From a bacterium (GTDB lineage Bacteria > UBA8248 > JACPRG01 > G963555815): 64,000 nt of DNA. The notes beneath the pieces were generated by a model. The model searched no databases, was not told where the DNA came from, and saw only the letters and a list, made by a program, of their open reading frames with translations. The DNA is taken from positions 1,728,001-1,792,000 of the forward strand of contig OZ244653.1 of NCBI GenBank assembly GCA_965218795.1, given 5' to 3'. Positions 11,606 to 16,701 of this stretch are shown one piece after another. The position numbers and the translations under genes were made by a program. Positions within the stretch are counted from its first letter, which is position 1. Each line of letters begins with the position of its first letter.

Positions 11606-11887
11606 TATGCGAAATGTCACTACCCGGTCGAGCAAATGCCCGGGGCACGTACACTCTAGATTCCTTGAGCCGCAACGAAGTTGACAAATGAGTCAAGTTT
11701 CAGGCAAACAGCAAGCAGCTACATGCTCGTCGGTCTGAGGCGAAGCCTCGCTAGGTATGATCCAACTCCTCAGCCGATCTTGGCGGAACGACCTCGCGGG
11801 GATCGCCTCGGCTGCCAGCAAGTCTGTCGTCATTGGAGTTGACCCGTTTTCGTGGACACCTTCAGAGTGTGCGCAGGAGGTGTTCAG

Positions 11888-12141
11888 ATGCGAAAGACTC
11901 ATTCGCCCTACGCGCCGGAGTAGCGGCGCCAGATGGTCGAGTTGGTTCGCTCGGGCCGTACGCCCGGGGAGCTGGCCCGGGAGTTCGAGTGTTCTGCTTC
12001 GGTGATTCGCAACTGGGTGCGCCAGGCCGACCGCGACGAGGGCCGTCGTGAGGACGGTCTGACAAGTACGGAGCTCGAGGAGCTGCGGCGGCTTCGTCGA
12101 GAGGTCCGTCAGCTTCGCGAAGAGCGGGAGATCCTAAAAAA
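11888..12141 (+). pseudogene. IS3 OrfA (HTH) with an in-frame TAG at 11921, cut by the IS110
   Basis: MRKTHSPYAPE*RRQMVELVRSGRTP...EEREILK; continues as KAAVWFARET after 13746. Confidence 0.85.
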
Positions 12142-12380
12142 CGGGACAAGACGGCGTCTTCCTGGACGAATGGAAACTTGGTGGGCAGCGTAGAATGTGC
12201 GATGTCCGGGGGGAGCAACCGTCAGCTTTTTGGAGGATCATGACCCCGCAAAAAACGTGGTTCAGGGACTGCTGCGGACTTGACTGTGGCGCCGTCGATC
12301 GACGAGCCCGATTAGGAAAATGATGGGAACCGCCGTCCCGCCTCTCGGACATCTCCCAACATGATTAAGGAGAGGGACCC
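12142..12380 (+). ncRNA. Putative IS110 bridge RNA region
   Basis: Contains TTAGGAA (12312-12318) and GTCCCG (12335-12340) matching the two sides of the predicted circle junction, plus a 13/15 antisense match to the target at 12225-12239. Confidence 0.65.
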
Positions 12381-13745
12381 ATGGCGAGTACAAAGCGCAG
12401 GACGAAACGTTCTTCCCGAGGCATGACGGTGGTCCATCCCAATGCGGCGGGGGTGGACATTGGGTCGCGAATCCATGTGGCCGCGGTGGGATCGAAGGGT
12501 ACTGACGAGCCCGTACGCACCTTCAAGACCTTTACCAACGACCTGCAGCGTCTTGCCGACTGGTTCGAAGAGGCTGGGGTCGAGACGGTCGCGATGGAGT
12601 CCACGGGCGTTTACTGGATCCCGTTGTTCGAGATCCTTCAAGAGCATGGATTGGAAGTGATCGTGGTGAACGCTCGGGAGGTGAAGACGGTTCCGGGACG
12701 CAAGAGTGACGTGAACGATGCGCAGTGGCTGCAGCAGCTGCACCAGTACGGTTTGTTGCGAGCCAGTTTTCGCCCCACTCGCGGGATCGCAGAGTTGCGG
12801 TCTTACCTGAGACAGCGCGAGCGCCTCCTGGACTATGCAGCGGCGCACATTCAACACATGCAAAAGGCGCTGACCCAGATGAATGTTCAGCTTCACCATG
12901 TTGTGTCCGACATCACGGGGGTGACGGGGCTGCGGATGATTCGGGCGATCGCGTCGGGGGTCGTCGACCCCGACTTACTCGCGGCATGGCGCGACAGCCG
13001 TTGTAAATCCTCACGCGAGACGATCCGTGAAGCGCTTGTCGGGCATTACCAACGCGAGCACGTCTTTGCGCTGAGACAGGCCCTGGAGCTGTACGATGTG
13101 TATCAAGCACAAGTGGCTCGCTGCGACCAGGAAATCGAGGCGGTCCTGGGTCGCCTCAGTGATGGCGTCGATGAGCCGTCGGCGGCGCTGCCCGCGCCTC
13201 GGCACAAGGCGCGTCAGCCCAACGGATTGAACTTCGACGTACGAGGCGCCCTGTATGCGTTGCTCGGCGTAGACCTGACCCAGATTCACGGAGTCGGCCC
13301 CTACCTTGCGCTGAAGATCATCGCCGAATGTGGGACGGATATGTCTCGATGGCCGAGCGCGAAGCACTTCACGTCGTGGCTTGCATTGGCGCCGGCGAAC
13401 AAGATCTCCGGTGGACGCGTTCTGGCCTCGAGAACGCGCCGTACGTCGAATCGGGCCGCTGCGGTGCTGCGTCTGGCGGCGGTGGCGGTGGGCAGGACCG
13501 AGACCGCGCTCGGAGCGTTCTATCGTCGATTGTCGGCGCGGATCGGCAAGGCCAAGGCGGTGACTGCCACCGCCCGAAAGATTGCGGTCCTGCTATACAA
13601 CACGCTGCGATATGGGCAGAAGTATGTGGATCCCGGCGCTTCATACTATGAAGAGCGTTATCGTCAGCGTGTGGTGAAGAATCTTCGCCGACGGGCCGCT
13701 TCTCTGGGGTATGTTCTGCAGGAGGGTGCGGAGGCAGTTTCTTAG
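12381..13745 (+). CDS. IS110 family DEDD recombinase/transposase
   Basis: GVDIG, AMESTGVYW and KSDVNDAQWL motifs; C-terminal KISGG serine motif and KAVTATARK. Confidence 0.95.
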   Translation: MASTKRRTKRSSRGMTVVHPNAAGVDIGSRIHVAAVGSKGTDEPVRTFKTFTNDLQRLADWFEEAGVETVAMESTGVYWIPLFEILQEHGLEVIVVNAREVKTVPGRKSDVNDAQWLQQLHQYGLLRASFRPTRGIAELRSYLRQRERLLDYAAAHIQHMQKALTQMNVQLHHVVSDITGVTGLRMIRAIASGVVDPDLLAAWRDSRCKSSRETIREALVGHYQREHVFALRQALELYDVYQAQVARCDQEIEAVLGRLSDGVDEPSAALPAPRHKARQPNGLNFDVRGALYALLGVDLTQIHGVGPYLALKIIAECGTDMSRWPSAKHFTSWLALAPANKISGGRVLASRTRRTSNRAAAVLRLAAVAVGRTETALGAFYRRLSARIGKAKAVTATARKIAVLLYNTLRYGQKYVDPGASYYEERYRQRVVKNLRRRAASLGYVLQEGAEAVS

Positions 13746-13805
13746 GAAAGCCGCGGTCTGGTTCGCACGGGAGACCGGCTCGGTGCCGGGGAGGTCTTCG
13801 GGCTC

Positions 13806-14846
13806 GTGAAGGCGAACCAGGCCTGTCATCGGGTGGCCACGATGTGCCGGGTGCTGGGTGTCTCCTCCAGCGGGTACTACACGTGGCGAAGCCGTGGGCG
13901 TTCCAATCGTGCGAAGCACGACGAGGCGTTGGGGGGCACGATCCGGGCCATCCACGAGGCATCTGGCGGCACCTACGGGGCGCCTCGGATGCATGCCGAG
14001 TTGACGGCCAACGGGCGTCGGGTGAGCCGCAAACGGGTAGCTCGTCTGATGCGCGAGGCGGGCTTGGCCGGGGTGAGCCGGCGCCGGGGCACGCGCACCA
14101 CGCGTCTGGACCCGAGTCATCGTGCGGTCCCGGACCGGGTCGAACGCCAGTTCCAGGCCGATGGGCCGGACCGAATCTGGGTGGCCGACATCACCTACGT
14201 GCCGACCTGGGCGGGGTTCGTGTACCTGGCCATCGTGCTCGACGTGTTCAGCCGCCGGATCGTAGGGTGGTGCATGGCCCATCATCTTCGCACCGAGCTG
14301 GTGCTCGGGGCGCTCAACATGGCGCTGGGACAGCGCCGGCCCTATGGGGTCGTGCATCATTCGGACCGGGGAACGCAGTACACTTCGCTCGCCTTCGGCA
14401 AGCGGTGCCGGGAGATGGGGGTGCTTCCCTCGACCGGGTCGGCCGGCGACTGCTATGACAACGCCATGGCCGAGAGCTTTTTCGCCACGCTGGAGTGCGA
14501 GCTCATCGACCGGCGTTCGTTCCGTACCCAGGCCGAGGCGCGCATGGCGATCTTCCAATTCATCGAAGGCTGGTACAACCCACGCCGCCGGCACTCCGCC
14601 CTGGGTTACCTCAGCCCCAACGACTACGAACGCGACGCGGCGAAGGCAACGCCGGGTGCAGTGCGCAACGTTCATCGTCCGGCCCGAGGGGTGCCCGGTG
14701 CTTGCTGGAGCGGAGAGCCAAAGGGAAAGATATCCCCTCCAGCGATATCCTATCCACCGATCTTGGGGAAGACTTTACGTCCACCGGCTGTCGCCCAACT
14801 CAGGGCTGGAGGTGACAGCCATAAACTGTCCACTGAAACGGGGTAA
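13806..14846 (+). CDS. IS3 OrfB DDE integrase
   Basis: WVADITY, HHSDRGTQY, DNAMAESFF and YNPRRRHSALGY motifs. Confidence 0.95.
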   Translation: MKANQACHRVATMCRVLGVSSSGYYTWRSRGRSNRAKHDEALGGTIRAIHEASGGTYGAPRMHAELTANGRRVSRKRVARLMREAGLAGVSRRRGTRTTRLDPSHRAVPDRVERQFQADGPDRIWVADITYVPTWAGFVYLAIVLDVFSRRIVGWCMAHHLRTELVLGALNMALGQRRPYGVVHHSDRGTQYTSLAFGKRCREMGVLPSTGSAGDCYDNAMAESFFATLECELIDRRSFRTQAEARMAIFQFIEGWYNPRRRHSALGYLSPNDYERDAAKATPGAVRNVHRPARGVPGACWSGEPKGKISPPAISYPPILGKTLRPPAVAQLRAGGDSHKLSTETG

Positions 14847-15594
14847 CTCCACATCGCCGCGCCGTACATCAAATACGACGAAGCAGCGTGGTTCTGCAAG
14901 CTGCTGCACTCAGGTATCGAGGTCATAACGCTCGTGAATATCAATGTGGAGGCTGTCAGCGCATCGGCATTGGACTTGGCTGCCCTGCGTTGCCTCGCCG
15001 AAGTGTCCTCCTCCGCGAAGCTCATCGCACTGTCGAACCTCCACGCGAAAGTGTTTATCGCCGACGAAAAGGCGGCGATCGTGACATCGGGCAACCTGAC
15101 GCGGTCAGCACTCGATAGCAATCTCGAATACGGCGTGTTGCTCCGAGAAACCGGCTTGGTTCAAGCGGTACGTAAGGACATGCTCTCGTTCGCTCGCCTC
15201 GGAAGCCAAGTGGATGCGAACACTGTTGCTAAGCTCGCTCCCCTGGAGGCCGAGCTTCGCCAAGCGCAGGCCAACATCGCAAGCAGCGCGACACCAACCG
15301 CAAAGCGCAGATTCGCCGAGGTTATGCGGCAGGCGAGGCCTGCATTCGCTTCCGCTCAGGTGGGCAACCGAAGCGCGCACGCCGTGTTCGGTGAAGCGAT
15401 TCAGTTCATATTGGCCCGCGGACCACAAACCACAAAAGCAATCCAGCAAGAGGTGAGCCAACTCATGCCAACTCTCTGCGACGACCGCGAATATTTCCTC
15501 ATCAAAGGCGAGCGTTACGGCAAGGCTTGGAAGCGACGGTTTCGCCACGCACAACTGCACCTCAGGCGAAAGGGTGTCGTCACCTACAACGCTA

Positions 15595-16698
15595 GTGTAG
15601 TGTAACAACCATTTATAGACTATAATAATTGCGCTCACAGTAAGGAGGAGCGCGATGGAACTGACCGCCTATGAACGAGCCGAACTGTTGCGGCGAGCAA
15701 GAAGTCGAACCGGCCGAGCAGAAGATGCGCGCCGGGCACGGGTGATTGTGATGCTGGCAGACGGATACACCTGGGACCAAGTCTGCGACCGACTCGAATG
15801 CAGTCGGGGTTTCGTGGCCAGTTGGAGCAGGCGCTTCGCGGAGCAGCGACTTGCGGGCCTGTACAGCCGCCATCAGGGTCAGGCCGCACGGCGGCTGACC
15901 CCAAAGCTCGAGGCGCGGATTCTGAACGCGACGCGCAAGCCGCCCACCGATGGAACGACGCATTGGAGCACACGCCGCCTGGGGGCTAGGCTGGGCGTCT
16001 CGCACATGATGGTTGCGCGCGTGTGGGCCAAGCACGGGCTGAAGCCGCATCGGCTGGATCGCTACATGGCGTCGAGCGACCCGGACTTCGAGGCGAAGGC
16101 GGCGGACATTATCGGCCTCTATTTGAACCCACCGCAGCATGCCGCGGTGTTTTGTGTGGACGAAAAGACGGCGATCCAGGCCCTGGATCGGACCGTGCCG
16201 GTTTTGCCGCTCTCCCCGGGCCGCGCCGAGCGCCATGGTTTCGAGTACCGCCGCCATGGCACGCTGTCGCTGTACGCCGCCTTCAATACCCAGACGGGCG
16301 AAGTGCTGGGCAAGACCGCCGAACGCCACACCTCGGCGCAGTTTGTTGCCTTTCTGGCGGACTTGGTGGCAACTCAGCCCCGCGACAAGGATATCCATGT
16401 CATCGCCGACAATCTCACCGCCCACAAGACCCCGCAGGTCCGGCGCTTCCTTGACCAACACCCCACCGTGCACATGCACTTCACGCCCACCTACTCGTCC
16501 TGGCTCAACCAAGTCGAGTTGTGGTTCGGCAAAATCCAACGCCACGTCATCTCGCGCGGCATCTTCACCTCCGTAAAAGACCTCAACCGAAAGCTGATGC
16601 GCTATATCAAGCTCTATAACAAAGCTCCCAAAACCGTGAAGTGGAAATACCATGACCCAAGGCGACGCCTTGGGTCAAAATCAGTTGGTACAGGCCAC
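15595..16698 (+). mobile_element. IS630-family element
   Basis: TA duplication at 15593-15594 and 16699-16700 in a CTAG context; imperfect IRs GTGTAGTGTAACAAC / GTGGCCTGTACCAAC. Confidence 0.88.
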
Positions 16699-16701
16699 TA
16701 G
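15655..16701 (+). CDS. IS630 transposase
   Basis: CVDEK, YRRHGT, IADNL and SSWLNQVELWF motifs. Confidence 0.95.
   Translation: MELTAYERAELLRRARSRTGRAEDARRARVIVMLADGYTWDQVCDRLECSRGFVASWSRRFAEQRLAGLYSRHQGQAARRLTPKLEARILNATRKPPTDGTTHWSTRRLGARLGVSHMMVARVWAKHGLKPHRLDRYMASSDPDFEAKAADIIGLYLNPPQHAAVFCVDEKTAIQALDRTVPVLPLSPGRAERHGFEYRRHGTLSLYAAFNTQTGEVLGKTAERHTSAQFVAFLADLVATQPRDKDIHVIADNLTAHKTPQVRRFLDQHPTVHMHFTPTYSSWLNQVELWFGKIQRHVISRGIFTSVKDLNRKLMRYIKLYNKAPKTVKWKYHDPRRRLGSKSVGTGH

Follow-up and report, generated by a model that had tools for sequence, protein, structure and literature searches.

The question raised by this locus is why a transposable element should lie exactly within the frameshift signal of another. 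In a 64,000-nucleotide (nt) stretch of contig OZ244653.1 (positions 1,728,001 to 1,792,000; the window, whose numbering is used below) an element of the IS110 family separates orfA from orfB of an insertion sequence (IS) of the IS3 family. The reading that we favour, with a probability of roughly 0.8, is that 12142-13746 is a recently active RNA-guided IS110-family IS that recombined, through a 2-nt AA core, into the A7 heptamer of the IS3, and that its lineage is specialised on A-rich -1 frameshift junctions. The two elements are laid out as follows.

12142-13746, + strand: IS110-family element, 1605 base pairs (bp), with boundaries taken from empty sites
12142-12380, + strand: its non-coding left end, 239 nt, from an alignment of 57 distinct left ends; the putative source of a bridge RNA
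12381-13745, + strand: IS110-family transposase gene, 454 amino acids, with its TAG stop inside the right end
13737-13746, + strand: right end GTTTCTTAGG, kept in most of 80 relatives
11834-14851, + strand: host IS3-family element
11834-12141, + strand: left part of the host IS3, with the inverted repeat TGGAGTTGACCC..., orfA and the first copy of the AA core (12140-41)
13747-14851, + strand: right part of the host IS3, with the second copy of the AA core (13747-48), the remainder of orfA, orfB (13806-14846) and the right inverted repeat

The boundaries follow from comparison with sites that lack the element. The left junction reads GATCCTAAAAAA/CGGGAC (12130-12147) and the right junction TTAGG/AAAGCCGCG (13742-13755), and across the site two IS3 copies of this genome that have no insertion (C1:2857757 and C1:225182) have the sequence GAGATCCTAAAAAAAGCCGCGGTCTGG, with GAGATCCTAAAAAAAGCCGCGG at the point of insertion in both. 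In contigs from four public runs 12139 is joined to 13747 with 1607 bases skipped, which, with 2 ambiguous bases, is the same empty site. The target thus holds a single AA core, and the occupied site has one on each side of the element. With the site restored, orfA runs on for 20 codons to its stop and orfB opens in the -1 frame, placing the insertion within the A AAA AAA heptamer; because the insertion separates the two frames this IS3 copy cannot make OrfAB. A first interpretation made from the letters of the window (the sequence-only reading) had proposed both this site, restored with one AA core, and the splitting of orfA from orfB at the A7 slippery window, and the empty sites, the profile matches and the reading frames bear it out. 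The host has the features of an IS3-family member: HTH_Tnp_1 matches 11933-12138 on the orfA flank in the profile search, rve, HTH_21, rve_3 and rve_2 match the orfB flank, the two frames stand in a -1 relation at an A-rich heptamer, and, as read from the sequence, the inverted repeats begin TGGAGTT and are flanked by a 3-bp target duplication, CAT, at 11831-33 and 14852-54. Upstream of the ATG at 11933 there is another at 11888, with an in-frame TAG (11921-11923) in between, so that either orfA starts at 11933 or the copy in the window is damaged.

The inserted open reading frame (ORF) has the RuvC-like DEDD domain and the Tnp domain of the IS110 family, matching DEDD_Tnp_IS110 (PF01548, 82.2 bits against a cut-off of 29, E 4.5e-23), Transposase_20 (PF02371, 51.7 bits, cut-off 21.3, E 1.2e-13) and the NCBIfam model transpos_IS110 (NF033542, 'IS110 family RNA-guided transposase', 259.1 bits, cut-off 140). 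Also as in that family, there are no terminal inverted repeats, and the 2-nt core stands at both junctions. There is no non-coding right end, the stop codon lying within GTTTCTTAGG. A Shine-Dalgarno-like AAGGAGAGGG precedes the transposase ATG and the co-orientation of element and host is constant, so IS3 transcription could read into the element. About 30 nt into the left end is a GGAAAC motif (12172-77), which is AGAAAC in at least 90% of the relatives. Together with GTTTCT near the right end (13737-13742) this forms an asymmetric inverted repeat, for which no informative covariation was seen between left-end AGAAAC and right-end GTTTCT.

That the choice of site is a habit of the lineage emerged when the insertion sites of homologues were tabulated, as the sequence-only reading had suggested doing. 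Species-representative genomes yielded 596 candidate stretches on scanning; 499 were confirmed as relatives, and 80 of these were fetched (transposase 62-92% identical); in most of the 80 the junctions have the same shape, with an A-run followed by C at the left and GTTTCTTAGG followed by AA at the right. Neighbouring genes were sought with tblastn over 74 distinct junction contexts and their classes confirmed by Pfam. The adjacent gene was IS3 orfA or orfB in 21 of the 74, an IS630-type gene (HTH or DDE_3) in 12, a DDE_Tnp_1_4 gene in 4, a gene of the rve+HTH_32 type in 3 and a Mu-C-type gene in 1. No adjacent gene was detected in the remaining 33, most of which have flanks of under a few hundred bases; several of these bear the IS3 peptide signature ...ERDILK/KAAAYFAKE. 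Pfam adds HTH_Tnp_1 on the left flank at four more loci, one of them also with HTH_21 on the right.

Reading frames could be scored in 44 of the 69 contexts with a recognisable right end, the other 25 having too little flank. In half of these (22/44) the upstream ORF stops within 45 codons and the other ORF opens in the -1 frame; 6 are +1-like, with an A-run whose length is ambiguous or decayed, 5 have the site inside one ORF and 11 show no such frame pattern, two tandem junctions and one Na/Pi transporter gene among them. Programmed frameshifting occurs in some IS630 members; what was measured here is the two-ORF arrangement in the -1 frame. Relatives in other phyla occupy the same IS3 codon position, next to an orfB that, where detected, is 26-73% identical to that in the window, and a single genome has copies in several different IS630-type junctions. 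From the neighbouring genes and reading frames we conclude that A-rich -1 frameshift junctions are what the lineage targets, in several IS families and in IS3 most often. It is also widespread: a 65%-identical relative is common on enterobacterial plasmids, relatives at 60-80% identity being present in 245 of 72,556 plasmid records, and in E. coli, where 546 of 5426 genomes have relatives, a 65%-identical relative has a partial 'transposase' on one side and a partial 'IS3 family transposase' on the other.

In one Vicinamibacterales genome (loci L062-L070) there are copies with swapped flanks: L067 has an IS3 orfA on its left and a DDE_Tnp_1_4 gene on its right, and in L069 the two sides are exchanged, as if two copies of the element had recombined and so rearranged the chromosome.

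If the site is chosen by an RNA, the non-coding left end is where it would be encoded. A consensus fold with inspection of 55-57 distinct left ends yields two modules.

12217-12262, + strand: module 1, the putative target-binding loop, whose helices covary and whose guides track the targets
12217-20 with 12259-62, + strand: lower stem of module 1
12225-31, + strand: 5' guide of module 1, GCTTTTT, antisense to the core and right target (5' strand G-NNN-GCUUUUU)
12232-33 and 12235-36 with 12244-47, + strand: upper stem of module 1, GG-N-GG with CCCC
12249-56, + strand: 3' guide of module 1, CAAAAAAC, with the sense of the left target, core and C (3' strand G-CAAAAAAC)
12265-12339, + strand: module 2, the putative donor-binding multiloop
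12265-69 with 12335-39, + strand: closing helix of module 2, GGGAC with GTCCC, which covaries
12273-79, + strand: TGCGGAC in module 2, conserved and called invariant
12293-12304, + strand: hairpin of module 2
12307-10, + strand: CCCG in module 2
12312-18, + strand: left donor guide of module 2, TTAGGAA
12321-24, + strand: TGAT in module 2

In 55 sequences the 13 pairs of this model are 97.9% paired, against 86.5% when shuffled and 38-65% in slid controls, with 76 double-change cells against 21.6. The three helices are individually 96-100% paired and 7 of the 13 pairs change on both sides; in the upper stem (GGAGG/CCCC) the fourth pair switches from G-C to C-G or A-U. The 26 G-U cells favour the + strand, since the other strand would give A-C. 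A search of Rfam over 11800-14000 found no family at its gathering score (the best, 22.3 bits against a gathering score of 45, is unrelated), and folding the left end as a single sequence lends no support of its own, its stability being no greater than that of shuffled sequences (z 0.46). It would seem likely from the comparative fold that 12142-12380 encodes a bridge RNA.

The loops of the two modules vary in step with the sequences that they would recognise, namely the left target, the right target and the left donor. The 3' guide matches the left target over a mean of 6.24 contiguous positions, against 5.32 when shuffled, and the 5' guide follows the right target (1.18 against 0.66); in neither case did any of 5000 shuffles score as high. 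Among the relatives the 3' loop segment reads AAAAAA, GGCAAA, AGGGAAA, TCTCAAA or CAAGAAA, and each of the four divergent guides matches its own left flank over 5-9 contiguous nt. On the other side a 5' guide with GCC accompanies AAGGC (L036, L071 and L082) and one with AAG accompanies AAACTT in the IS630-targeting group; given U-G wobble, position +1 can be either A or G. In module 2 UUAGGAA equals the right end plus core, and the right-end variants TCAGG and ATAGG are mirrored by variants of the guide, with 9 distinct guide/end combinations matching over 6-8 contiguous nt. The relative with the guide GGCAAA sits in an IS3 variant whose site is TTGGCAAAAGC in place of A7. In the genome that holds the window (contig C1), seven IS3 relatives of about 91% identity (e.g. 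at 177622, 506079 and 1637715) are of the same variant, with GAGATACTGGCAAAAGCTACGG at the equivalent place and no A7 run, and none of the seven is occupied.

These observations are consistent with the following scheme. Recombination at AA would have placed the element in the heptamer that the host IS3 uses for -1 frameshifting, directed by a left-end bridge RNA in which module 1 would form an internal loop and module 2 a multiloop closed by GGGAC/GUCCC. The 3' side of module 1, CAAAAAAC, having the sense of the left target and core, would pair with the bottom strand, and UUAGGAA on the 3' side of module 2 would likewise have the sense of the right end and core, so that in both modules the putative bottom-strand binder lies 3' of the stem-loop. 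On this scheme the whole lineage is specialised on A-rich -1 junctions of IS3, IS630-type and rve+HTH_32 type elements.

A different layout for the same RNA was given by the sequence-only reading: a contiguous 15-nt antisense guide, GCTTTTTGGAGGATC (12225-39), and a donor loop running from TTAGGAA (12312-18) to GTCCCG (12335-40), closed by a stem of CCGA (12308-11) with TCGG (12345-48). All of these strings are where it placed them, as is the A6 run (12250-55), and the 13/15 match of the guide to the target is beyond chance, only two places in the window, the junction and 12225-39, lying within 2 mismatches against 0.07 expected from 100 shuffles. The left end moreover begins with 6 nt of which GTCCCG is the exact reverse complement. 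The comparison with relatives, however, separates what is guide from what is structure. GCTTT(TT) and the A6 run do act as target guides, and the split layout that this reading had expected and believed missing is in fact present, with the A6 run as its second half; TTAGGAA, too, behaves as the donor guide that it was taken for. The extension GGAGGATC, by contrast, lies in the conserved GG-N-GG/CCCC stem and does not follow the left target (2.08 matches out of 8 against 2.09 shuffled, 64 guide/target pairs), reaching 6/8 in the window element only, so that the 13/15 match is a composite of the real 5' guide, GGAGG from the stem and three letters of the loop whose match is confined to this element. 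GTCCCG, rather than a right donor guide, represents the 3' strand of the covarying helix with GGGAC (12265-69), and CCGA/TCGG is paired in 58% of cells, much as in slid controls (54-62%), and not conserved. Exact antisense matches of at least 6 nt to the left-end start are present in 20 of the 52 left ends listed; at the place of GTCCCG the match is found in the window element only, the 19 others being scattered elsewhere. This layout appears largely refuted by the comparison, and we regard it as very unlikely.

Several findings weigh against RNA-guided insertion as set out above. The left ends were searched for a segment complementary to the left-end start and yielded none, which leaves the set of four guide-DNA pairings by which IS621 bridge RNAs are defined one short. 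Mutual information between left-end columns and the element's first 12 nt amounted to phylogenetic noise only; both sides of the donor module, in either sense, match the left-end start over lengths of 3.94-4.1 against 3.85-4.2 shuffled, and the region 5' of the target loop over 5.10 against 5.19, although a guide of 3-4 nt would escape such tests. The predicted circle junction TTAGGAACGGGAC has 0 occurrences in the genome, no go-back joint indicative of a circle is seen in contigs of the four public runs, which could hardly show one, and there is no sigma-70-like site in the left end or across a natural tandem junction of right and left ends. The 3' guide of the window element matches the A6 run only, position -7 being C against T, and the guides therefore specify little more than A7GC. 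Finally, the permutation tests shuffle related sequences with no correction for kinship, which overstates their significance; the discrete retargeted cases are the stronger evidence. An alternative is selection of the site by the protein or by DNA structure, such as the A-tract or a downstream frameshift-stimulating hairpin, with the matches in the left end as by-products. In its favour, the guides of this element cover only about 9 nt and no right donor guide was found; a requirement for sequence plus structure is reported for ISPpu10 in a preprint (10.64898/2026.03.19.712850). Such an explanation does not account for the non-A guides GGCAAA, AGGGAAA, TCTCAAA and CAAGAAA sitting in matching non-A flanks, nor for the compensation of right-target and right-end variants. 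It seems to us very unlikely, although DNA structure could add a further layer of selection to RNA guidance.

The copies within this genome, a single contig of 5.17 Mb, raise a different objection. There are four, all with identical 60-nt flanks; two are identical and two (C1:4907806-4909411 and C1:2706302-2707907) have one extra C near 12830, which breaks the transposase frame. All four sit in IS3, and 41 A7GC sites are empty, only 2 of them in IS3 (0 of the 39 outside IS3 are occupied); either specificity must have a further source or the four copies did not arise independently. The occupied IS3 copies are mutually identical for at least 200 nt to the left and at least 73 nt to the right of the element and diverge further out, where they come to resemble the empty copies; the latter already differ at 18-75 nt. 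One pair of copies is near-identical across the entire IS3, and the extra C shared by two copies should disable their transposase. Gene conversion between IS3 copies, or movement of an IS3::IS110 composite, has thus probably contributed, and on the mosaic flanks the four copies are not clearly independent. That spread here was mainly by such homologous recombination, with one or two RNA-guided insertions rather than four, strikes us as an even proposition. It gives no account of the other-phylum relatives at the same IS3 codon position beside such divergent orfB genes, nor of the genome with copies in several IS630-type junctions. Recombination adds to site-specific homing and does not replace it as an explanation. 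A search of 60 relatives of the host genome did not find the element, which is uninformative on mechanism.

At four loci in as many genomes (L014, L015, L018 and L064) two copies of the element stand head to tail. The tandem junction consists of the right end, AAA and the left end, one A beyond the single AA expected between the ends for a circle junction or simple re-insertion.

With RNA-guided homing as the preferred reading, the element can be set beside known systems. It shares with the bridge RNA system of IS621, a member of the IS110 group (Durrant 2024, PMC11208160; Hiraizumi 2024, PMC11208158), a recombinase with DEDD and Tnp domains, a long non-coding left end upstream of the gene, a 2-nt core at both junctions, a short right-target guide and two RNA modules, target then donor, each built as stem, guide, stem-loop, guide and stem. 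In IS621, however, the bottom-strand left target guide (LTG, A50-U58) precedes the stem-loop and the top-strand right target guide (RTG, G77-G80) follows it (PMC11208158, PMC11208160), whereas here the bottom-strand guide is 3' of the stem-loop in both modules, so that the layout is not that of IS621. The core is also different (CT in IS621, AA here), as is the target (a repetitive extragenic palindromic, or REP, sequence rather than another IS); the donor module here is a multiloop in which no right donor guide was detected, and the IS621 transposase structure (8wt6) is only a distant match to the 454-residue protein (E 1.9e-5). ISEc21, which is of the IS110 type and has its non-coding region upstream of the gene, is directed to a conserved part of IS3-family transposase genes that contains the DDE codons, and natural retargeting is described for its relative ISMch6 (Siddiquee 2024, PMC11187229). 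The window element resembles ISEc21 in the upstream region and in homing to IS3-family transposase genes; in ISEc21 the bottom-strand match comes before the top-strand match, the opposite of the order found here (PMC11187229). That order is the one described for the seekRNAs of the IS1111-type elements ISEc11, ISPa11 and ISKpn4, with the top-strand complement 5' of the bottom-strand match (PMC11187229), and in many IS1111 members the donor-binding nucleotides lie in a multiloop (PMC11208160). Unlike the IS1111 group, in which the RNA region is downstream of the transposase gene and there are subterminal inverted repeats of 7-17 bp, the element has 239 nt upstream and essentially no right end.

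The IS110-family elements IS4321/IS5075 and IS1383 insert in the ends of other transposons, their targets being terminal inverted repeats. They likewise home to conserved sequence of other mobile elements; their targets are not coding frameshift signals. RNA-guided recombination by IS110 elements, homing of family members to mobile elements and the targeting of IS3 DDE codons by ISEc21 are thus already known. A widespread lineage aimed at the frameshift slippery sites of several IS families is apparently new, as are the retargeted GGCAAA relative in an IS3 variant and an RNA, encoded by the left end, whose guides stand in inverted order and in which a right donor guide is not detectable. The parts of the literature consulted hold no description of frameshift-site targeting, and supplementary tables and ISfinder may already list such targets; the main texts likewise do not describe an IS1111-like guide order combined with an upstream RNA region.

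Extended to the whole lineage, the reading would be of a cross-phylum hyperparasite of other ISs, homing by an RNA guide of inverted order to the slippery A-runs of IS3, IS630-type and rve+HTH_32 elements, and perhaps recognising its own left end without an RNA guide; we hold this broader view to be evenly poised between right and wrong. A host IS cannot easily alter its slippery motif without losing its transposase, and the match of the GGCAAA guide to the changed site is suggestive of an arms race. If so, other ISs would offer in their frameshift signal a landing site that is safe, present in many copies and constrained by function, and thus a new ecological niche for an RNA-guided IS; this would also be a concrete case of one IS silencing others. 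The element would also represent a second natural bridge-RNA layout, with an AA core, swapped guides and a multiloop donor module, which bears on the freedom available for engineering. For annotation, split 'transposase' and 'IS3 family transposase' pseudogenes beside an IS110 gene would be readable as insertions of this kind.

Some smaller observations concern the elements and their surroundings. One contig from an RNA library runs across the empty IS3 site; the library has no contig over the left-end RNA region, an absence that speaks neither for nor against such an RNA. The extra C (equivalent to window 12830) recurs in a contig of run X1. At 2.71 Mb, where an IS3 copy carries the element, the orfB homology of that IS3 is interrupted once more, by about 1.36 kb (C1:2704319-2705675, query position about 624), probably through another insertion. 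On a Citrobacter freundii plasmid (L087, 3830-3880) an IS66-family element interrupts the enterobacterial relative in its right end, at TTTCTCAG, leaving the remains of three nested mobile elements (IS3, IS110 and IS66). In the window itself, a 348-residue ORF at 15655-16701 resembles, by eye and from the ORF list only, an IS630-type transposase.

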